This document shows, in pieces, positions 34,901-48,900 of a DNA stretch of 64,000 nt (position 1 is the first letter of the stretch; every line of letters starts with the position of its first letter). The position numbers and the translations under genes were made by a program. Source of the DNA: Centroscyllium fabricii. Lineage: Eukaryota. Under the pieces are notes generated by a model. It searched no databases. It was not told where the DNA came from and saw only the letters and a program-made list of their open reading frames with translations. Location: the NCBI GenBank assembly GCA_051313645.2, contig JBNRSN020000194.1, positions 248,001 to 312,000 of the forward strand. Reading direction: 5' to 3'.

Positions 34901-37340
34901 ACCCGCCACTGACTGAGAATACTCGGAGCACCCGCCCCTGACTGATACTACTCGGAGCACCCGCCGCTGACTGAGAATACCTGGGGCACCCGTCGTGACT
35001 GAGAATAGTCGGAGCTCCCACCCATGACTGAGTATACTCGGAGCACCAGCCCCTGACTGAGAATATTCGGAGCTCCCGCCCCTGACTGAGTATACTCGGA
35101 GCACCCGCCCCTGACTGAGAATATTCGGAGCACACACCCCTAACTGAGAATACTTGGAGCACCCGACCCTGATTGAGAATATTCGGAGCACTCGCCCCTG
35201 ACTGAGAATACTGAGAGCACCCGCCCCTGACTGAGGATATTCAGAGCACCCACCCCTGACTGAGAATGCTGAGAGAACCCGCACCTGACTGAGAATACTG
35301 AGAGCACCCGCCCCTGATGGAGAATAGTGAGAGCGCCCGCCCCTGACTGAGAAAACTGTGAGCACCCGAACCTGACTGAGAATACACGGAGCACACGCCA
35401 CTGACTGAGAATACTCCAAGCTCCCGCCCCTGACTCAGAATATGAGAGCACCCGCCCCTGACAAAAAATAATCGGAGTACCCGCCCCTGACTGAGAATTG
35501 TCGGAGCACCCGCCCCTGACTGATACTACTCGGAGAACCCGCCCCTGACTGAGAATACCTGGGGCACCCTGCGTGACTGAGAATACTCGAAGCTCCCACC
35601 CCTGACTGAGTATACTCGGATCACCCGCCCCTGACTGAGAATACTTGGAGCTCCCGCCCCTGACTGAGTATACTCGGAGCACCCGCCCCTGTCTGAGAAT
35701 ATTCGGAGCACACACCCCTGACTGAGAATACTTGGAGCAACCGCCCCTGAATGAGAATATTAAGAGCACTCGCCCCTGACTGAGAATACTGAGAGCACCC
35801 GCCCCAGACTGAGGATACTCAGAGCACCTACCCTTGACTGAGAATGCTGAGAGCACCCGCACCTGACTGAGAATAATGAGAGCACCTGCCCCTGTTTGAG
35901 AATTCTGAGAGCACCCGCCCCGACTGAGAATACTGTGAGCACCCGCCCCTGACTGAGAATATTCGGAGCACACGCCCCTGACTGAGAATATTCCAGGCTC
36001 CCGCCCCTGACTCAGAATACTGAGAGCACCTGCCCCTGACTCAGAAAACTCGGAGCACCCGCCACTGACTGAGAATACTGAGAGCACCCGCCCCTGACTG
36101 AGAATACAGAGAGCTCCCGCCCATGACTGAGAATACTTGGAGCACCCACACCTGACTGAGAATACTCAGAGCACTCGCCCCTGACTGAGAATACTGAGAG
36201 CACCCGCCCCTGACTGAGAATACTCAGAGCACTCGCCTCTGACTGAGAATACTCGGAGCACTCGCCCCTGACAGAGGATACCCGGAGTACCCGCCCCTGA
36301 CTCAGAATATTGAGAGCACCCGCCCCTGACTCAAAATACCAAGAGCACCCGCCCCTGACTGAGAATACTCAGAGCACTCGCCCCTAACTGAGAGTACTCG
36401 GAGCATGCACCACTGAATGAGAATACTTGGAGCACCCACCCCTGAATGAGAATACTCGGAGCACACGCCCCTGACTGAGAATACTCGGAGCTCCCGACCC
36501 TGACTCAGAATACTGAGAGCACCCACCCCTGACTGAGAATACTGAGAGCACTCGCCCCTGACTGAGAATATTCGGAGCACCCGCCCCTGACTGAGAATAC
36601 TCAGAGCACCCGCCCATGACTGAGAATATTCGGAGCACCCACCGCTGACTGAGAATAATTGGAGCACCCACCCCTGAATGAGAATACTCGGAGAACCCGC
36701 CCCTGACTGAGAATACTCAGAGCAATCGTCCCGACTTAGAATACTCGGAGCACACACCCCTTACTGAGAATGCTCGGTTCACACACCCGTGACTGAGAAT
36801 ACTCGGAGCACCCGTCCCTGACTGAGAATACTCGGAGCACTCGCCCCTGACAGAGAATACTCGGGGCACTCGCCACTGACTCAGAATAATCAGAGCACCC
36901 GCCCCTGACTGAGAATACTTGGAGCACCCAACCCTGACTGAGAATAGTCGGGGCACTCGCCCCTGACTCAGAATACTCAGAGCACCCGCCCCTGACTGAG
37001 AATACTGAGAGCACCCGCCCCTGACTGAGAATACTCAGAGCACCCGCCCCTGACTGAGAATACTCAGAGCACCCGCCCCTGACTGAGTATACTGAGAGCA
37101 CCCGCCCCTGACTGAGAATACTCGGATCACCCGCCCCTGACTGAGAATACTCGGATTACCCGCCCCTGACTTAGAATAATCGGAGCACTCGTCCCTGACT
37201 GAGAATACTCGGAGTACATGCCCCTGACTGATACTACTCGCAGCACCCGCCCCTTACTCAGAATGACTTTGGCACCCGGCGTGACTGAGAATATTCGGTG
37301 CTCCCACCCCTGACTGAGTATACTCAGAGCACCCGCCCCT
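31997..37340. repeat. 29-bp satellite, containing a 464-bp tandem duplication (33497-33960 / 33961-34424)
   Basis: Same monomer; rare variants (CACCCATCCC, AGTACATGCC, ATGACTTTGGCACC) recur at offset 464 = 16 x 29. Confidence 0.96.
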
Positions 37341-38770
37341 TGTAAGATTTGAGCTGATGTTTCCCGGATCCAGAACTACTATCAACACTTTTATAACACA
37401 GAACTGCAAGCAACATGCTTTTGTTAAAACCGATAATGTGGGGGCACCCTGGGTACGGAGATGTGGCTCTGTACCAGGGAAAAAGGACTATAGCCAGAGA
37501 CTTTTAAAAGAAAACCAGACACAAGCAGGGGCCACAAAATGGCTTCGCCGACCACGTGATCAGCCTGGCAGAGTGAAACTAAAACAGCCCCCCCCACACA
37601 CATTTTTCTGCAAACTCATGACCAGATAGACTTTGGATATTGGTCATGAATAGCCCACATAACGAGATCGAGTCCCCAGACTGGGAGGCGCCGGTGTCCA
37701 GCAGATGGACAAGGGGCACCGAGGTAACCTCGTCAAGTAAAACAAAAGGCCCATAGAAACCCGAGGGCAGGTAATGGGAAAAAGCTTATGCACAGAGATC
37801 GCTTAACAGAAAAAACGTTTACAGGTGGTCAGGAGATTATCGGTCTGTTAAGCGACCATGAGAACAGAAAAGAACAGATCTAACCTCACTTAAAGACAAA
37901 AGGACACTATAGATCTGGCACGCAGATAAGCGCGAGGTGCGGGGGTATAACGGCCAGGGTTTTAAACTGAAGGCAGAAGGAACAGGCTCGGAGAGGGAGA
38001 GAGAGGTTCGGACAGAGGGGAACTGATGAGCTAGAAAGCAAACAGACTGACGAACTGGAGAACGAGAGCTCAAGCAAAGAGCTGATGGCAGTTGATAGCC
38101 AGAAAGAGTAACAGTGTCGTTTTAAAGTGAGAGCTGGAGAGAAGCAGCAGAGGTCTGAACCAGAAAGAAAGGTGCACTCGATTTAGAGATCAGCTAGAAA
38201 GTGCTTGCCTGCATCAGAAGTCGGTGCCAGGAAGCCAGGAAGGCGGAAGAGAGAGAGAGAGAGAGAGCCCCTTCCACAGCTACCTAATCGAAGGACGAAG
38301 GAGGTGCAACACAACGAACCCCGAACCCCCCCAGTAAACATAGCCCATGGTGAGTATGGTGTTCCGCTTCTGCACGTCTGGACATAGGATAGTGTAGGAA
38401 GTGGAGGGTGGGTGTCGTGGAAGCATATTGGGGTGTAGCTGTTTAATGTTTGCCCAATTTTACGTTGTATCGTACCCTCTCCATCCTGTTTTTAATTGAT
38501 TAACGTTTGGTTCTACTGTTGTAATAGTTGAATGTGTAATAAAGGACTGTGTTTTAAACATCACATCTCTGGTCTCTTGGAACTCTGTTCTGGCAGGAAT
38601 TACCTACACTATCACAACTCCTGTACATAAGCCCAGTGTCGAGAACCGTAGGGGGGAGCGTTTCAGACCGCTCACAGGGACCCGGTGTGCGAGGCCTGGT
38701 CGCGGGACCAAGGCAAGGCGCAGGGACTCTAGGTCGAGCCTGGAGAAGGCCGGCTGCCAAACCCCTTACA
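37341..38770 (+). repeat. 5' LTR (1430 bp)
   Basis: Terminal inverted TGTAAG/CTTACA; TATAA 37946-37950; (GA)n run near 38248-38267; AATAAA 38538-38543. Confidence 0.97.
38347..38355 (+). promoter_or_regulatory. Candidate start codon plus splice donor, ATG|GTGAGT, in the LTR
   Basis: Near-consensus U1 donor directly after an ATG; in phase with a candidate acceptor at 41714. Confidence 0.65.
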
Positions 38771-38775
38771 GATTT

Positions 38776-38793
38776 TGGCGACCCAGATGGGAC
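38776..38793 (+). promoter_or_regulatory. Primer-binding site, tRNA-Arg (CCG-type)
   Basis: TGGCGACCCAGATGGGAC, 5 nt after the LTR, is the reverse complement of GTCCCATCTGGGTCGCCA, which I recall as the 3' end of a vertebrate tRNA-Arg(CCG); not checked against a database. Confidence 0.8.
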
Positions 38794-40541
38794 ACTGGCA
38801 ACAGGATGATAGTGTGCCAGAAACGGTTGTAAGAACTAGGGATATGATGGATGAACGCATGGCCGACTATGTGTTCAGCAAGGTCAATCTGACCAAGTCA
38901 TGGATGTGTGAGTTGCTGGAAGACAAGCGCCCACTGGATGCAGCGATCCGGTGGACGTCCAGCAAAGCACACAAGAAAGTGGTAGAAAAGGCCGTCTGGC
39001 TGTCGTGCTACAAGAAGCAGGTCCAGCTCCTGGACCGTGTAGTGGCAGCGCAGGCAGCCCAGATAGGGAACCTCCGTGAGGAGGTGAGGGAAAAGGCTGA
39101 GGGAGGGCTCCAGTTGATCGAGGCCCTGGACTCCTCGAACAAGGAGCGCCGGGTTTTGGTCAACCGATATGAGGCCAAGGTTGAACTGTTGGGGTGCCAG
39201 ATCACTGACGCTAAGCTCAGTGAGGGCGCAATTAGGCAGCGGTGTGCCGGCCTAGACCAACAGTTGGAGGCCACAGGGGAGACTCTCCGGGGGGTTAAAG
39301 CAGCCTATAAAATGGCTTTGGAGGATCGGTCCGAAGGGGCCGATCACGGGGCTTGTAGGGAGGAGATCGAAAGCCTGCGCAGCGCCTTAGATAGGGCTAG
39401 TGGGTTGGTCTGCCTTATGAACCCCGCAGCGGGAACATCACTGGCAGCGGCAAGGGTTCCAGCAAGGGGTCCGTGCATGCCCGTGGTGGCTTCGGCCCCC
39501 ACGTATCACGATCCCCCCAGCTATGAGGCTTCCTGGGAGAAGGGGGGCGCTGGGGAGAGTGAGCAGGGGGGGGGACCGGCCAGGGAACCGGCGCAGGCAC
39601 CGATGTGTCCATTGCTGGAGACCAGGCGGGGACCCGACGCAGCGAACGGGGATCCCGGGCCTGTCCAAAGTCAGATTATAGTGCCCCACAGCGCCCAGCA
39701 GTTGAGGTCCATGGTCGGGCAAGTCAAGAAGCTGTCCGAATCGGGGGACCCTTCACTGCATTTTCAGGAGGTTGAGCAGACCGCCGCAATCAATGGTTGC
39801 GACGAAGGGGAGCAGGCGAGGATGCTATTGTTCTCCCTGGACTACTCACTCCTTCAGTGCCTCAGTGATGAGAGCAAACGGGGTACCAGAACCTACGAAC
39901 AGTTAAGGGAAGAGGTTCTGGAGGTTTTAGGCACGGACGATGAGGGTCCATTTGCCCGCTTGGGGAAAACTCTCCAGATGGAGGGAGAACCTCCGAGGGT
40001 TTTTGCGGCGAGACTGTGGCCGGTCTACCAACGTAGCTGCCCGCAGGTCCCGAACCGGGATGCCCTGGTCGGGAATGTTAGGGCGCAGTGGCTTCGGTGC
40101 TTGGTAACGAACAGCCTAGCAGCTGTCCGGGAGCAGGCGAAAGCCTGGTTCGACCCAACGAACACCACGGAGGACGAGGTTTTGGACCGCCTCACCGTGG
40201 GGTATCGGAACACCCGGAGCACCGCCACCAAGTCGGTCAAGGGGAAGGTGCACGTAGCGGAGGCCGTTACATCGGCCCCGAAGGAATGGCGTCAGGAGGG
40301 CAACCCTGCCGCACAGTCTAAGTGTTTTAGGTGCGGTAAGGTGGGTCACTGGAGGAAAGACTGCAGGGTTTTCCCCAAGGAGGTTAGGGCCAACCCCGCT
40401 CCGCGCGCCGAGATAGCCGTTAAGCCCGAAACGTTGGAGTCAATGATCGAGGTGATGCGGTCCCTCATGGAAGCACAAGGGAAGGTTGCAGTCGCCACCG
40501 GCTCCCCGGGTGCGGGGGGGACACCGGACATTCCCCAGTGA
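38787..40541 (+). CDS. gag: Gag-like polyprotein (N-terminal coiled coil, PPxY late motif, capsid-like helical region, CCHC knuckle)
   Basis: Intact ORF of about 584 aa from the first ATG (inside the PBS; alternative ATG at 38844); PPSY at 39513-39524; CFRCGKVGHWRKDC at 40323-40364. Confidence 0.88.
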   Translation: MGHWQQDDSVPETVVRTRDMMDERMADYVFSKVNLTKSWMCELLEDKRPLDAAIRWTSSKAHKKVVEKAVWLSCYKKQVQLLDRVVAAQAAQIGNLREEVREKAEGGLQLIEALDSSNKERRVLVNRYEAKVELLGCQITDAKLSEGAIRQRCAGLDQQLEATGETLRGVKAAYKMALEDRSEGADHGACREEIESLRSALDRASGLVCLMNPAAGTSLAAARVPARGPCMPVVASAPTYHDPPSYEASWEKGGAGESEQGGGPAREPAQAPMCPLLETRRGPDAANGDPGPVQSQIIVPHSAQQLRSMVGQVKKLSESGDPSLHFQEVEQTAAINGCDEGEQARMLLFSLDYSLLQCLSDESKRGTRTYEQLREEVLEVLGTDDEGPFARLGKTLQMEGEPPRVFAARLWPVYQRSCPQVPNRDALVGNVRAQWLRCLVTNSLAAVREQAKAWFDPTNTTEDEVLDRLTVGYRNTRSTATKSVKGKVHVAEAVTSAPKEWRQEGNPAAQSKCFRCGKVGHWRKDCRVFPKEVRANPAPRAEIAVKPETLESMIEVMRSLMEAQGKVAVATGSPGAGGTPDIPQ

Positions 40542-41495
40542 CTGGAGCCCGCGCAGCCTGTCAACCCGGTTCCCTCGGAAAGACGTGCAGAGGAAGAGAC
40601 CTCCGGTAATTTGGAGGACTTCCTGGGGTGCCAGGTTGCAGGAGCTCAGGTCGTGGAACGGGCTTTAAGGAAAGAGAATGACAGGCTAGCGGCAAAAGCT
40701 AGCAGTTTAGAGGAAGAACTCAAGGTTTTTAAAATGCTTCACAGCAGGTGCAAGCTGTTTAGCCTGGAGGCAAAAACCCAGGCAGCTGAAGTGAAAAGGG
40801 AGTTTAAAACCTCAAAGGCTGCAACAGGTCAGCGGCAGCAGGTAAAACAGGGGTCAGTCACAGGGGCAAGCCCTGTGGATAGAGAATCACAGCCAAAATT
40901 GTGGAAGGTCACGCAGGTGGGTAAAGCTGCCTGCGTGAGGGGAAAGGAGGAAGACGTTTGCCAGCAATGGAGGGCGTCCCAGTTTGGATGGGACTCAGAC
41001 GAAGACGAGCCTGATCAGCTCGGTCTGGGGCTGAATCTCATGACGGAGGAGTGGGAGTCGGAGGGGGATGACGAGAGCATCCTCGACTCAAGCACCAGGG
41101 AGGCGGGGGTAGCGGGCGGAGACTCACCACCTGTCACAGACAGGGTGAGGTCGGAAGCCGCGGATATACCCAGCCCCAAGGGGGTAGTGCTGGATGAGGA
41201 AGGGCCGGGGTCGGCAGCTGCGGGGGTCACCCGAGCTGCGGCACGGCGGGAACCTGTCCTCAACCGGGCTGCCCAGGGGGCCGTGCCTGAGGTGACTCTC
41301 CGTAGGTCCAGCAGGATACCTCAACTGAGGAAGCTTTGGCCGGAATTGTACGGGACCCCAGCGACAGGCAGTTTGTCGGGTTGGAGAAAGGAAGATGGTC
41401 ACTGGCAGGCAGCCACAGGCTGCGACACTTCAAAGGATGCAGGCAGCGCGGCCAAGCCACAGGCAGCGGCGCGCTGCAGCCTGGATCAGGATTAG
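40542..41495 (+). CDS. ORF2, unknown 317-aa protein in frame with gag behind a single UGA (occupies the pol position)
   Basis: Same frame as gag with no stop from 40542 to the TAG at 41493-41495; heptad-rich segment, acidic tract (WDSDEDEPD, EEWESEGDDES), LRRSSR motif; no pol catalytic motifs. Confidence 0.6.
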   Translation: MEPAQPVNPVPSERRAEEETSGNLEDFLGCQVAGAQVVERALRKENDRLAAKASSLEEELKVFKMLHSRCKLFSLEAKTQAAEVKREFKTSKAATGQRQQVKQGSVTGASPVDRESQPKLWKVTQVGKAACVRGKEEDVCQQWRASQFGWDSDEDEPDQLGLGLNLMTEEWESEGDDESILDSSTREAGVAGGDSPPVTDRVRSEAADIPSPKGVVLDEEGPGSAAAGVTRAAARREPVLNRAAQGAVPEVTLRRSSRIPQLRKLWPELYGTPATGSLSGWRKEDGHWQAATGCDTSKDAGSAAKPQAAARCSLDQD

Positions 41496-41714
41496 CCTGG
41501 CCGCCTTGGAAGGGCGGCGTTGTATGATAGGCTAGGTAGTTTTAAGAAGTTTAGTGGTAAGTTAAGTTATATTTTTACTGGGTTAGGTAAAAGGGGCAAT
41601 GTGTCCAGCGTGCAGATGCGGGGTACGGGCTGGGGTCATCAGACCCAAGCATGGGTCTTTAACACAGCCAAGCGCTCTTGGAGAGGCTGGCTATACCAAC
41701 GTTATCTGTTTCAG

Positions 41715-44087
41715 GAACCAAACGAGGCACTAAGATGGGGAATCATCTTCCTGGCGATCGGATGCGGGTGGGCCTATCGGGGCCGCACCCAGGACATCGT
41801 GGTATACGGATGTTCGGGAAGCACCGCGCCTACCGCGACCGTTGGGACGGGACAACGGACAACCGAAGGAGCTGCCGTTTTCTTCCACCAGGGGCGATGG
41901 CCAGGGTGGCTGGGATCAAACGCTTCTGAGTATCTCGGCACCCCAGGATTTTTCTTCAGGGACACTGAGTTATTGTGCCCAAAGGTGAAGATCATCGCCC
42001 AGAAGACCAGCGTCACGGCCGGCAAGAGGATTTGCCTGAGGTGCACCGGAAAGGTCGACACCCGGTTGAGGTGGTGGCTACGTAAAACCAGCCGGACCAT
42101 GGCCAACTCAACCGTGAATTGGGAAAAGCTGGACAACAACACTCACAGGACAGTCTTTGGGACTAATGAAAGTTTGAGTGTCTGTTGGGACAAGTGGTGG
42201 GAGCCTGATGAGGGAATTTATGTGTGTAGGTGGGGTTCCAGGTATTTGTGCCCCACAGGGAACAGCATATTTTTCCACCAGCAGTGGCAAGATGGTGGTA
42301 AGGGGATGAGGTGGGATGTTAGCTCACAAGCCTGTGGGGTCCCATTTTCCCCGAGCCCAGTTAACGCCACTGAACTCGTCACCCGACCACGCACAACACC
42401 TCCCACACCGAGGCGGGCAGCAGCACAGGAGGGTGGGTGCCCCAAGACTACACGGGGGCCCGAGAATGGCCTGGTATTGATACCAACAGATCAGGTATTA
42501 TACCAGGGGGTGCACTACACGGTGGCCTCGGTGATTTTAAACCTCACCGAGGTAAGGTTGCCGGAGTGGTGCCCCAAGGAGACCGAAAGGTTATATCAGG
42601 TGCTGCTGGCAAATATGTACAGGCAGTTTTACGAACTTGACCTGGCCAGTGTAGACAAGGCAAGCCTGTACCGCCAAGGGCCAGAGACATGGGGCCAAAC
42701 GGGGAGACAAAAGAGGGGTGTAGTGAATGATGTGTTCACGGGCTTTAACACCGGAGCCTCTGTGGTCAACGCTCTCGACACCATGGAGCTGCAGACCCAG
42801 ATAAACGGTTTAAAGTCGCAGTTGAAGGACATCCTCACGGAGGAGAACAATGTCGTCGGGTCGGAGCTCCATGAGGACCAGGCGATGACACTGCACCTGC
42901 GCGAGATAATCGCGTAATTAGAAAGACACGCGAGCACGGTGAACGCTCTGATCAAGGAAGATCGGAACGCTTCTGACCAGGCTGCGCAGAACGAGGTGTG
43001 CGTTCTGTACGGGGCGTGGTTGCTGGGCGAGGGCCGCAGCAACCTTGAGGACCTGAAGCAAGGGTTGGTCCCGTCCTGGATCAGTAACAAACACCTCCAA
43101 GCACTGCAGCCTTTTCAGAACGCGCTTACACCGTGTCAGCTCAGGTTGGCGTCAGAGGCGTACCCTGTTCCCATTGACTGTGGGCGTTCTAATTACACGG
43201 TCATGGGAGTGGTGGTACGGATGCCGGTGTTGGGCAAGACGGCAAGGCCCGCACCGGTATACAGGGTGGAGAACATCGGAGTCATTCAGGGGGGAGTACA
43301 CGTTCGCTACGCAGAGGTCCCACCGTATGTTGTCCGCTGGGAGCAGTTGATGACAGGTACAGACCTCTCGGGGTGCCGGAGCAGGGGAGCACACATAATA
43401 TTGTGTCCCCAGCACTTGAATGTCTTGCGGGTACAGCAGTGTGGGTTCAGGGCTGTTGGCGCGAAGCCTATGAATTGCACTATGGAGGCGATGGCACAGG
43501 ACCATGTCCCTCCACAGGTGGCATACATAGGGGGTGGTACTTACTGTATTACCACTGCAGCGCAACACTACCGACACGGGCAGCATGGCCTATGTCCGGT
43601 GAGTGACAGCAGCTTCTGTTTTAAACCACAGGCAGAGGTTCAAGTGGCACAGCTGCGAATCGTCCCCATACCTGAACCCTCCACGGTTCACATCAGTGTA
43701 AAGGAGAATTTCACCAACCTGCAGCACTTTGTGGCGCATTTTGGGTATGCCATACCCCCTCTCCCCGAACACCTCACAACACTTTTTAAAGCAGTTGCCG
43801 TATCGCAAAAGCATTTTTACACCCTGGAACAGAAGACAGATAAGATTGGGGCAGACATATTGGAGATAGTGGTTCCCCCGTGGTGGGACCTGTTCAATAA
43901 TATAGAAGTCCCATCTTGGGTTAGAATTGCATCACACGTGTTAGTGGTGGTGCAAGCTTTTATAGTGTTCTATTTAATATGTGGACAGTGCAGAGGGAGA
44001 CAGCGGCTTCGCAGCCGGATAGGCAGAGGGGAATGGAGGGACCGGTACGTCAGGGCGGACGAACCGGAGGCAGAGACAAGCTGCTGA
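41715..44087 (+). pseudogene. env: Envelope glycoprotein: signal peptide, Ig-like domain, Pro/Thr linker, furin site, long F1-like fusion subunit, TM; one in-frame TAA
   Basis: Track ORFs 41520-42917 and 42939-44087 share one frame, split by TAA at 42915-42917; hydrophobic WGIIFLAIGCGWAY; RQKR at 42705-42716 then GVVNDVFTGFNTGASVVNAL and heptads; C-terminal VLVVVQAFIVFYLIC; several N-x-S/T sequons. Confidence 0.87.
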
Positions 44088-44496
44088 CATGGGGAAGAAG
44101 TCACCTCCAATTTTACCTCTCTGTGAGAGAGTCTCATTGAAAACACTGTATATATATTTAAGTTTAAGTTTTGAAGGTATTTTCTTTTTGTGGTGTATGT
44201 ATTGATCTTTGTGCCCCAATAAAACGATCACCGACAGGAGGACGGTTGGCGGACGGCATCAGCCGAGGAAAAGGGTGTAAGTTTTGAAAGACGGGCACAA
44301 ATCTGGGGAATGTTTATGTGTATATAGTGACCCGGGAAGGCAGTAATGTATAGGTCGGCCTGAAAGATGGGGACTGTACGTTAAGTACTTGGGCGCTAGT
44401 TTAGGTAAAATAGTGGGGGTCTGGACGTGGACAACCGGGAAAACATAGCTCAACCGTAATTTAATTTGATTGCGACACATTGGGGTGTGTGGAATC

Positions 44497-44509
44497 AAAC
44501 AGGAGGGAC
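44497..44509 (+). promoter_or_regulatory. Polypurine tract of the ERV-like element
   Basis: AAACAGGAGGGAC directly before the TG of the 3' LTR. Confidence 0.8.
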
Positions 44510-45936
44510 TGTAAGATTTGAGCTGATGTTTCCCGGATCCAGAACTACTATCAACACTTTTATAACACAGAACTGCAAGCAACATGCTTTTGTTAAAACC
44601 GATAATGTGGGGGCACCCTGGGTACGGAGATGTGGCTCTGTACCAGGGAAAAAGGACTATAGCCAGAGACTTTTAAAAGAAAACCAGACGCAAGCAGGGG
44701 CCACAAAATGGCTTCGCCGACCACGTGATCAGCCTGGCAGAGTGAAACTAAAACAGCCCCCACACACATTTTTCTGCAAACTCATGACCAGATAGACTTT
44801 GGATATTGGTCATGAATAGCCCACATAACGAGATCGAGTCCCCAGACTGGGAGGCGCCGGTGTCCAGCAGATGGACAAGGGGCACCGAGGTAACCTCGTC
44901 AAGTAAAACAAAAGGCCCATAGAAACCCGAGGGCAGGTAATGGGAAAAAGCTTATGCACAGAGATCGCTTAACAGAAAAAACGTTTACAGGTGGTCAGGA
45001 GATTATCGGTCTGTTAAGCGACCATGAGAACAGAAAAGAACAGATCTAACCTCACTTAAAGACAAAAGGACACTATAGATCTGGCACGCAGATAAGCGCG
45101 AGGTGCGGGGGTATAACGGCCAGGGTTTTAAACTGAAGGCAGAAGGAACAGGCTCGGAGAGGGAGAGAGAGGTTCGGACAGAGGGGAACTGATGAGCTAG
45201 AAAGCAAACAGACTGACGAACTGGAGAACGAGAGCTCAAGCAAAGAGCTGATGGCAGTTGATAGCCAGAAAGAGTAACAGTGTCGTTTTAAAGTGAGAGC
45301 TGGAGAGAAGCAGCAGAGGTCTGAACCAGAAAGAAAGGTGCACTCGATTTAGAGATCAGCTAGAAAGTGCTTGCCTGCATCAGAAGTCGGTGCCAGGAAG
45401 CCAGGAAGGCGGAAGAGAGAGAGAGAGAGAGAGCCCCTTCCACAGCTACCTAATCGAAGGACGAAGGAGGTGCAACACAACGAACCCCGAACCCCCCCAG
45501 TAAACATAGCCCATGGTGAGTATGGTGTTCCGCTTCTGCACGTCTGGACATAGGATAGTGTAGGAAGTGGAGGGTGGGTGTCGTGGAAGCATATTGGGGT
45601 GTAGCTGTTTAATGTTTGCCCAATTTTACGTTGTATCGTACCCTCTCCATCCTGTTTTTAATTGATTAACGTTTGGTTCTACTGTTGTAATAGTTGAATG
45701 TGTAATAAAGGACTGTGTTTTAAACATCACATCTCTGGTCTCTTGGAACTCTGTTCTGGCAGGAATTACCTACACTATCACAACTCCTGTACATAAGCCC
45801 AGTGTCGAGAACCGTAGGGGGGAGCGTTTCGGACCGCTCACAGGGACCCGGTGTGCGAGGCCTGGTCGCGGGACCAAGGCAAGGCGCAGGGACTCTAGGT
45901 CGAGCCTGGAGAAGGCCGGCTGCCAAACCCCTTACA
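44510..45936 (+). repeat. 3' LTR (1427 bp)
   Basis: Direct repeat of 37341-38770; I found 2 substitutions and a 3-bp shorter C run. Confidence 0.97.
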
Positions 45937-48900
45937 CCCTGACTGAGAATACTCAGAGCTCCCGCCACTGACTGAGTATACTCGGAGCACTCGCCCCTGA
46001 CTGAGAATACTTGGAGCACCCGCCCCTGACTAAGAATATTCGGAGCTCTCGCCCCTGACTGTTGATACAGAGAGCACCCGACCCTGACTTAGGATACTCA
46101 GAGCACCCACCCCTGACTGAGAATACTGAGAGCACCCGCACCTGACTGAGCATACTGAGAGCCCACGCCCCTGACTGAGAATACTGAGAGCACTCGCCCC
46201 TGACTGAGAACACTGAGAGCACCCACCCCTGACTGAGAATAGTGTGAGCACCCGCCCCTGACTGAAAATACTCTGAGCACACGCCCCTGACTGAGAATAC
46301 TTAGAACACCAGCCACTGACTGACAATACTGAGAGCACCCGCCCCGACTGAGAATACTCGGAGCACCCACCCCTGACTGAGAATACTCGGAGCACCCGCC
46401 ACTGATTGAGAATTTTCGGAGCACCCGCCCCTGACTCAGAATACTCGGAGCACACAGCCCTGACTGAGATTACTCGGAGCACTCACCCCTGACTGAGAAT
46501 ACTGGGAGCACACACCCCTTACTGAGATTGCTCGGATCACACACCCGTGACTGAGAATACTCGGAGCACCCATCCCTGACTGAGAATACTCGGGGCACTC
46601 GCCCCTGACTCAGAATAATCAGAGCACTCGCCCCTGACTGAGAACACTCGGAGCACCCGCCCCTGACTGAGAATACTGAGAGCACCAGTCCCTGACTGAG
46701 AATTCTGAGAGCACCCGCCCCTGACAGAGAATACCCGGAGCACCCGCCCCTGACTAAGAATAGTGAGAGCACCCGCCCCTGACTGAGAATACTCGGACCA
46801 CCCTCCCCTGACTGAGAATGGTTGGAGCACCAGCCCCTGACTGAGAATATACGGAGTACCCACCACTGACTGAGAATTCTCAGAGCACCCGCCCCTGACT
46901 GAAAATACACGGAGTACCCGCCCCTGACTGAGAATACTTGGAGTACCTGCCCCTGACTGAGTATACTCGGAGCACTCGCCCCTGACTGAGAATACTCGGA
47001 GCACACACCCCTGACGGAGAATACTTGGAGCACCTGCCCCTGACTGAGAATATTCGGAGCACTCGCCCCTGACTGTTGATACGGAGAGCACCCGACCCTG
47101 ACTTAGGATATTCAGAGCACCCACCCCTGACTGAGAATACTGAGAGCACCCGCACCTGACTGAGAATACTCGGAGTACCCGCCCCTGATTGAGAATACTC
47201 GGACCACCCGCCCCTGACTGAGAATACACGGAGTACCCACCACTGACTGAGAATTCTCAGAGCACCCGCCCCTGACTGAAAATACACGGAGTACCCGCCC
47301 CTGACTGAGAATACTTGGAGTACCTGCCCCTGACTGAGAATACTCGGAGCACTCGCCCCTGACTGAGAATACTCAATGCACCCGCACCTGACTGAGAATA
47401 CTCGGAGCACCTGCTGCTGAATGAGAATACTCGGAGCACCCGCGCCTTACTGAGCATATTCAAAGCACCCACCTCTGACGGAGAATACTGTGAGTACCCG
47501 CCTCTGACTGAGAATACTCGGGGCACCCGCCCCTGACTGAGATTACTCGGAGCACCCGCCCCTGACTGAGAATACTCAATGCACCTGCCACTGACTTAGG
47601 ATACTGAGAGCACCCGCCCCTGACTGAGAATACTTGGAGTACCCGCCCCTGACTAAGGATACTAGGAGCACCCGCCCCTGACTGAGAATACTCGGAGCAC
47701 CCGCCCCTGAATGAGATTACTCGGAGCACCCGCCCCTGACTGAGAATACTCGGAGCACCCGCCACCGACTGAGAATATTGAGAGCACCCGCCCCTGACTG
47801 AGATTACTCGGAGCACCCGTCCCTGACTGAGAATACTGAGAGCACACACCCCTGACTGAGAATACTCAGAGCACCCGCCCCTGACTGAGAATACTCAGAG
47901 CACCACCCCCTGACTGAGAATATTTGGAGTACCAGCCCCTAACTGAGAATACTCGGAGCACCCACCCCTGACTGAGAATATTCAGAGCACCCACACCTGA
48001 CTGAGAATACTCGGAGAACCCACCCCTGACTGAGAATACTCAGAGCACTCGCCCCTGACTGCGAATACTTGGTGTACCCGCCCCTGACTCAGAATACTTG
48101 GAGTACCCGCCCCTGACTGAGTATACTCAGGGCACCTGTCACTGACTGAAAATACTAGGAGTACCCGCCCCTGACTGAGAATACTCAGAGCACCTGACCA
48201 TGACTGAGAATACTAGGAGCACCCGCCCCTGATTGAGAATTCTGAGAGCACCCGCCCATGACTGAGAATACTGTGAGCACCCGCCCCTGACTGAGAATAC
48301 TCGGAGCACATGCCCCTGACTGAGAATACGCCAAGCTCCCGCCCCTGACTCAGAATACTGAGAGCTTCCGCCCCTGACTGAGAATACTGAGAGCACCCGC
48401 CCCTGAATGAGAATAGTTGGAGCACCCGCACCTGACTGAGAATACTCAGAGCACTCTCCCCTGACTGAGAATACTGAGATCACCCGCCCCTGACTGAGAA
48501 TATTCGGAGCACCCACCGCTGACTGAGAATACTTGGAGCACCTACCCCTGAATGAGAATACTCAGAGCACCCGCCCCTGACTGAGACTACTCAGAGCACT
48601 CGCCCCGACTGAGAATACTCGGAGCACCCAACCCTGACTGAGAATACTCGGAGCCCTCGCTCCTGACTGAGAATACTGGGAGCACACACACCTTACTGAG
48701 AATGCTCGGATCACACACCCGTGACTGAGCATACTCGGAGCACCCGTCCCTGACTGAGAATACTCGGAATACTCGCCCCTGACAGAGAATACTCGGGGCA
48801 CTCGCCCCTGACTCAGAATAATCAGAGCACCCGCTCCTGACTGAGAATACTTGGAGCACCCACCCCTGACTGAGAATAGTCGGGGCACTCGCCCCTGACT

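Follow-up and report, generated by a model that had tools for sequence, protein, structure and literature searches.

The envelope gene of a young and very abundant provirus family in Centroscyllium fabricii encodes an immunoglobulin (Ig)-like head ahead of a predicted F-type fusogen, and analogy with other viral entry systems makes it somewhat probable that this head is a built-in, swappable module for receptor binding or attachment. The copy described here lies in a 64,000-nucleotide stretch of contig JBNRSN020000194.1, which at its full length we call the window and by which plain coordinates are numbered. An LTR provirus set within satellite DNA occupies positions 37341-45936 and has the following parts.

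37341 to 38770, + strand: 5' LTR (TG...CA), 1430 bp, with CCCT at 37337-37340 just before it
38776 to 38793, + strand: PBS-like 18-mer, called from its position and TGG start
38733 to 40541, + strand: gag frame, 602 aa stop to stop, with a CCHC zinc knuckle (zf-CCHC E = 6e-6, above cut-off)
40542 to 41495, + strand: pol remnant, 317 aa, in which 288 bp of non-pol sequence run in frame into the 3' end of pol
41496 to 44087, + strand: env frame, first ATG at 41616, broken in this copy by a TAA stop (42915-42917)
41727 to 41783, + strand: signal-peptide-like hydrophobic segment, from hydropathy; cleavage site inferred
41784 to 41975, + strand: N-terminal extension of the head, 64 aa, conserved, with one invariant Cys and no predicted fold (pLDDT 25-38)
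41976 to 42290, + strand: Ig-like (V/I-type) domain, core Cys at 42042 and 42225, further conserved Cys at 41976, 42033, 42183 and 42249
42336 to 42437, + strand: Pro/Thr-rich linker, 34 aa, containing TRPRTTPPTPR
42438 to 42716, + strand: F2-like subunit, opening CP-x4-GP-x2-GLVL, with the furin-type site RQKR at its end (42705-42716)
42717 to 44084, + strand: F1-like subunit, 456 aa, with a fusion-peptide-like start, heptad region, Cys-rich core and tail (Fusion_gly E = 0.016, under cut-off)
about 43908 to 43979, + strand: transmembrane helix within the F1-like subunit
44510 to 45936, + strand: 3' LTR, 1427 bp, with CCCT at 45937-45940 just after it

The two LTRs align over 1425 identical columns with 2 mismatches and one 3-nt indel. 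The non-pol piece is window 40559-40846, and the pol-bearing copies L025 and L032 match the window from 40847 onward. Long pol was present in these two of the 19 copies read upstream; most others are pol-deleted like the window copy, in which most of pol is missing and env stops prematurely. Because env is truncated ahead of the transmembrane helix, the window copy cannot make a membrane-anchored Env. The stop was seen in 2 of 18 loci scored (a set without L003 and L015), the window itself being one of the two, and the env ATG at 41616 is retained in 37/37 copies scored. A search of the 7.2-Gb genome with the Ig segment gave 6732 candidates, 150 of which were scored; there are at least 150 copies, all 96-100% identical, and open frames of 841 or 863 aa hold 81 of the 150. 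The closest named relatives are from skate (79%) and sawshark (54%).

The window is mostly 29-bp satellite, with about 1400 registers at about 82% identity, and a second, separate Ty3/gypsy-like gag-pol element with stops (25.7-30.0 kb, + strand) also sits in satellite. Provirus copies are spaced by 7338 bp at G000:C991 (321265, 328603, 335941) and by about 7160 bp at C1155 (107930915, 107938076, 107945239), which is consistent with tandem proviruses with common LTRs. The 317-aa pol-remnant frame is open in 12 of the 19 copies read and lies in frame after the gag stop, like pol in L032; it may be functional as a read-through product. Among the sequencing runs listed as containing the element none is of RNA, and contigs of four runs span it without an env splice joint, which has no bearing on splicing either way, and contigs from three runs of another organism bridge a 1308-bp env deletion (window 42464-43773) in which the head is kept.

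Several weak tests that agree with one another lend moderate support to the proposal, made in an earlier note on this DNA, of an Ig-like domain fused ahead of a fusogen, and we regard the head domain as very probably an Ig fold. First, the motif on which the proposal was based is present: Cys 42042 (frame residue 183), a Trp-Trp pair 10-11 residues on, SLSV, and DEGIYVC with Cys 42225 (residue 244, 61 residues after the first). This is the IgSF sequence pattern of a B-strand Cys, a C-strand Trp and an F-strand DxGxYxC at 55-75-residue spacing, although the Asp of the last motif (D238) is kept in only 22 of 40 aligned relatives; retention elsewhere in the core is 40/40 for C183, 39/40 for W193, 37/40 for Y242 and 38/40 for C244. 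The head alignment used has 40 rows, 38-97% identical, with 36 further own-genome copies (several subfamilies, including L032 of the same family) and two database proteins; row L094, which contains stops, was removed from alignment A1. DxGxYxC was found once across the six frames of the element and in 49 of 20,000 shuffles of the env frame, and the full C-x(8-16)-W-x(35-60)-DxGxYxC pattern, which was picked after the sequence had been seen, arose in 11 of 20,000 such shuffles. Six cysteines of the head segment are conserved beyond the core pair. Second, Pfam Ig_3 matched the window domain alone at E = 0.079 (13.9 bits against a cut-off of 30) and 18/40 relatives at E <= 0.1, the best being 0.0019; 'ig' was the sole other family matched, and the 187-aa head alone had no Pfam match at E <= 0.1. 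No Ig match of the window domain or of the 40 rows reached the cut-off (V-set, I-set, Ig_3). A PDB profile search ranked the CRTAM V-set domain first (E = 0.035), spanning the whole domain. In Atlas the domain scored 0.93 against Ig clusters; 9 of its 10 best family matches belong to one clan, and the 168 common features are slightly below the same-family mark of 170. Third, AF2 models built from the single sequence and from 40 rows were all-beta over the domain, and Foldseek lists against the PDB were headed by IgV domains (CD8, antibody V) at E = 0.002-0.02. Confidence in the models was low, with mean pLDDT values of 43 and 41, and Foldseek gave nothing at E <= 0.001 for them. The best VIA matches, mostly to Ig-fold chains and including rows for TREM1/2 and CD300, had Z scores of 6.4 (rmsd 3.7, 96 aligned) and 6.0 (rmsd 3.1, 91 aligned), and Z near 6 may, according to the tool, reflect just a common arrangement. 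A BFVD search gave nothing at E <= 0.001, with herpesvirus RL11/Ig-type membrane proteins among its top rows.

The head is under purifying selection yet is changing twice as fast as the F part, mostly in loops. Between two young families, pN/pS was 0.163/0.78 for the Ig domain and 0.083/0.51 for the F part; for the whole head between two young own-genome families, pN was 0.18 and pS 0.72. Entropy in the head was 1.5-1.6 in loops versus 0.4-0.9 in strands B, C, and F. Because synonymous distance is higher in the head than in the F part, the sequences hint at recombination near the head/F junction. N-glycan sequons are present in the Ig domain (three), the extension (one), and the linker (one).

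The TRPRTTPPTPR segment pointed out earlier does stand at 42381-42413, but the label of mucin-like stalk overstated it. A mucin-like stalk is a long, extended Ser/Thr/Pro-rich segment of tens to hundreds of residues. The linker here has only 34 residues, 7 of them Ser/Thr and 7 Pro, with 14/25 S/T/P in its best 25-mer, and is therefore too short for such a stalk; it is better likened to the proline-rich hinge of gamma-type Env or of HSV gD.

The fusogen behind the linker is in all likelihood of the paramyxovirus F-type fold. The F2-like segment runs about 90 residues from its opening motif to RQKR, and the window env has the lokiretrovirus-style layout of signal, RxKR, fusion peptide, coiled coil, and TM. 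Matches to Fusion_gly (PF00523) had E values of 0.016-0.043, under cut-off, with 1/27 rows matched, and Baculo_F matched the shark relative P0154 at E = 0.0011. The call draws on this layout and on weak HMM matches because no F protein was among the PDB matches of the A2 profile. Unlike gamma-type Env, the window env has an Ig-like head, no CX6CC, no TLV_coat match, and a post-furin subunit of 456 aa, where a gamma-type TM subunit has about 200 aa. Measuring the head against a retroviral SU, as had been done, was thus the wrong comparison: with that subunit length, no CX6CC and a weak Fusion_gly match, the layout is F-type and not SU/TM.

Lokiretrovirus Env likewise shows weak similarity to Pfam Fusion_gly (PMC7947760). 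It has in common with the window env a signal, a GPxxG(I/L)VL F2 opening (a likeness to the published Envs judged by eye), an RxKR site, a fusion-peptide-like segment, a long Cys-rich post-cleavage subunit, and a TM segment (PMC7947760). However, all 22 published Loki Envs that have an N-terminus, of 23 listed in the accessible supplement of PMC7947760, are headless and pass from the signal straight to the GPxxG F2 opening, whereas window-type env carries about 220 extra residues. This 220-residue head is therefore an addition. No Loki Env was among the env matches.

Judged by RT sequence, the element is on the canonical-retrovirus side. The pol of L032 contains PR, RT, tether, RNase H, and IN. 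A provirus with tether plus RNase H is a feature common to the element and lokiretroviruses (PMC7947760), and dual RNase H is present in both L032 and L025, but it is not diagnostic of Loki because canonical retroviruses have it too. The L032 RT motifs LPQGFHNSP and QYVDD are as in canonical retroviruses and are shared with basal fish and amphibian Retroviridae near snakehead retrovirus (clade Huo of PMC6001957; CmiERV lineage I, PMC4422223); gag and pol in one frame with one stop between them are also common to the element and these basal viruses (PMC6001957, PMC4422223). The Loki RT signature, taken from a published alignment, was found in 3 of 120 pol matches, all from eel, and is absent from L032. 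In two trees, L032 grouped at 100/98 with MLV, epsilon-like rows, and a row that matches the published SnRV text, while the Loki-signature rows lay elsewhere. Within this clade, L032 belongs to a basal, poorly resolved group that also holds pol proteins of frogs and coelacanth, outside the 95/96 subclade of the SnRV-matching row. An AU test in which the groups were named after the first tree had been seen, the Loki references were picked by motif, and no row was labelled foamy rejected L032 plus Loki-signature rows (p = 0.00096); p was 0.027 for the wider frog/coelacanth group. On the RT signature and this test, lokiretrovirus membership was rejected. The placement fits the scoring of Loki in 0/6 cartilaginous-fish genomes (PMC7947760); three of those six species hold env relatives found here. 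Canonical and Loki Envs have no detectable mutual similarity in the account available in PMC9040795, and the Env of the element looks F-type, unlike canonical Retroviridae Env.

The position occupied by the head appears to be modular: in shark and frog relatives it is either empty or taken by a different Ig-like head or a Cys-rich one. HMMER over 1.84 billion representatives gave 49 matches, two of which are bacterial PKD-repeat proteins; among the 20 of these 49 that were looked up, the named ones come from sharks, skates, and frogs, and some relatives are predicted gene models that may be incomplete. The window-type Ig head precedes the same F2 start in skate, in sawshark, and in many own-genome subfamilies. 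A second Ig-like head is found in P0131 (auto-named 'Ig-like domain-containing protein' in UniRef) and in own-genome L097; hhalign places its Cys, Trp, and WxxxW-GxxxC in register with the window-type head at E = 0.028 and 1.8% probability, no more than a hint of common origin. The heads of frog proteins P0138 and P0157 and of L097 look Ig-like to the eye alone and had no Pfam match. P0159 has a V-set head (E = 0.0014) without the canonical cysteines that resembles CEACAM/SLAM V domains (E = 0.23-0.6), and P0163, its sister on the F tree (100/100), is headless. In P0129, P0139, and P0145 the head is Cys-rich and unrelated, with a similar Pro/Thr linker behind it. The window-type Ig profile showed no clear homology to the other heads, its score being attained by 27 (P0131), 4 (P0138), 67 (P0157), 8 (P0159), 19 (P0129), and 4 (P0139) of 200 shuffles.

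The L097 env (L097:1456-4011, - strand, G000:C933) is an open 851-aa F-type frame, 45% to P0131, in a clade whose other listed copies are broken or partial. About 5 kb upstream, on the same strand and beyond an inserted element, there is an integrase-like remnant. This env has possibly been retained by the host. Gene models P0128, P0002, and P0154 join env pieces to host genes (zinc finger, Niban, fbxo15); these fusions are probably annotation artefacts.

A captured host Ig domain, as the earlier note had it, is plausible. No donor was found: CRTAM was the best match (E = 0.035), and no host Ig protein was among the 49 HMMER matches. Since sharks and skates carry already divergent forms of the domain within the virus lineage, any capture would be old, and we infer an ancient host origin.

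Paramyxovirus F requires a separate attachment protein, and none was found in this provirus. That absence, together with analogies to the RBD-PRR arrangement of gamma-type Env and to HSV gD, leads us to read the head as an attachment module. The Ig-fold head, N-terminal extension, and proline-rich linker would sit between the signal-like segment and the predicted F-type machine; where the copy is intact, cleavage of the precursor at RQKR would leave the head plus F2 outside the F1 trimer. The head would then bind a cell-surface protein, which would tether the particle and help to trigger F1 refolding, one chain performing what paramyxoviruses split off to a separate attachment protein. By these analogies, receptor binding and triggering by the head is the reading towards which we lean. 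Gamma-type Env has an N-terminal RBD, a proline-rich region, and a C-terminal domain (PMC9967133), and like it the window env has a variable N-terminal module and then a proline-rich hinge ahead of the fusion machinery (PMC9967133). In HSV gD, extensions at the N-terminus and of proline-rich sequence wrap around an IgV core (PMC3182920), but gD is a separate protein that acts on gH/gL and gB, and serves as an analogue only, no sequence relationship having been found or expected. Since the IgV core of gD itself contributes little receptor contact (PMC3182920), binding may here fall to the extension rather than to the Ig core.

We think it unlikely that the Ig head is instead an immune decoy or modulator that mimics host IgSF proteins (nectin/CRTAM, CD2/SLAM, or CD300/TREM-like) on infected cells or particles while the F part attaches. 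CRTAM as best profile match, the TREM1/2 and CD300 rows from VIA, and the CEACAM/SLAM-like head of P0159 would suit mimicry, and members of this fusogen family can lack a head, as P0163 and the published Loki Envs do. However, the IgSF matches are all weak and tied, at 6-18% identity to the domain, other lineages have a non-Ig Cys-rich module in this slot, and a decoy has no need to be fused to a metastable fusogen. A structural cap that protects or locks the prefusion F trimer, or helps it to fold, without binding any ligand itself would be consistent with the eight conserved cysteines, which suggest a tightly cross-linked module, with the N-glycan sequons (three in the Ig domain, one each in extension and linker), and with purifying selection. 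We consider it rather improbable: repeated swapping of unrelated heads on one scaffold suits a targeting part better than a fitted clamp, and it is the loops that vary most. Least probable of all is a disulfide-rich viral beta domain that merely resembles Ig by convergence or a chance motif, with no host capture, which sub-threshold HMM scores, low pLDDT, an atypical EF segment (WDKWW), and the D of DxGxYxC in only 22/40 rows would allow, but against which stand the agreement of sequence-profile, language-model, and fold searches on IgSF, the Cys-Trp-Tyr-Cys core kept in register, and the clear V-set domain of P0159 in the same slot.

An attachment module thus remains our preferred function for the head. 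More broadly, we tentatively propose an undescribed lineage with canonical-side RT, in sharks, rays, and probably frogs, whose F-type Env became a one-chain entry machine by gaining an interchangeable N-terminal position for attachment domains; captured Ig domains would have occupied it on more than one occasion, and an unrelated Cys-rich module once. The present contribution is the RT placement together with the head swapping. No Ig-headed F-type Env is described in the literature searched, which includes the accessible text of PMC9040795, PMC13709493, and bioRxiv 2023.10.26.564294 and 2023.10.17.562709; bioRxiv 2023.10.26.564294 states that its own vertebrate analysis is to be reported elsewhere. 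If our proposal is true, F-type Env is not confined to lokiretroviruses, which bears on whether it is the ancestral retroviral envelope. F-type Env beside a canonical-side RT would favour the Wang and Han scenarios in which the canonical lineage either possessed F-type Env or acquired it, and would count against the independent origins that they prefer (PMC7947760). Retroviruses with F-type envelopes have no separate attachment gene, and a modular Ig head would be a concrete, testable answer to how these envelopes attach to cells. A retrovirus would, in addition, have captured an IgSF domain, something otherwise best known from large DNA viruses.
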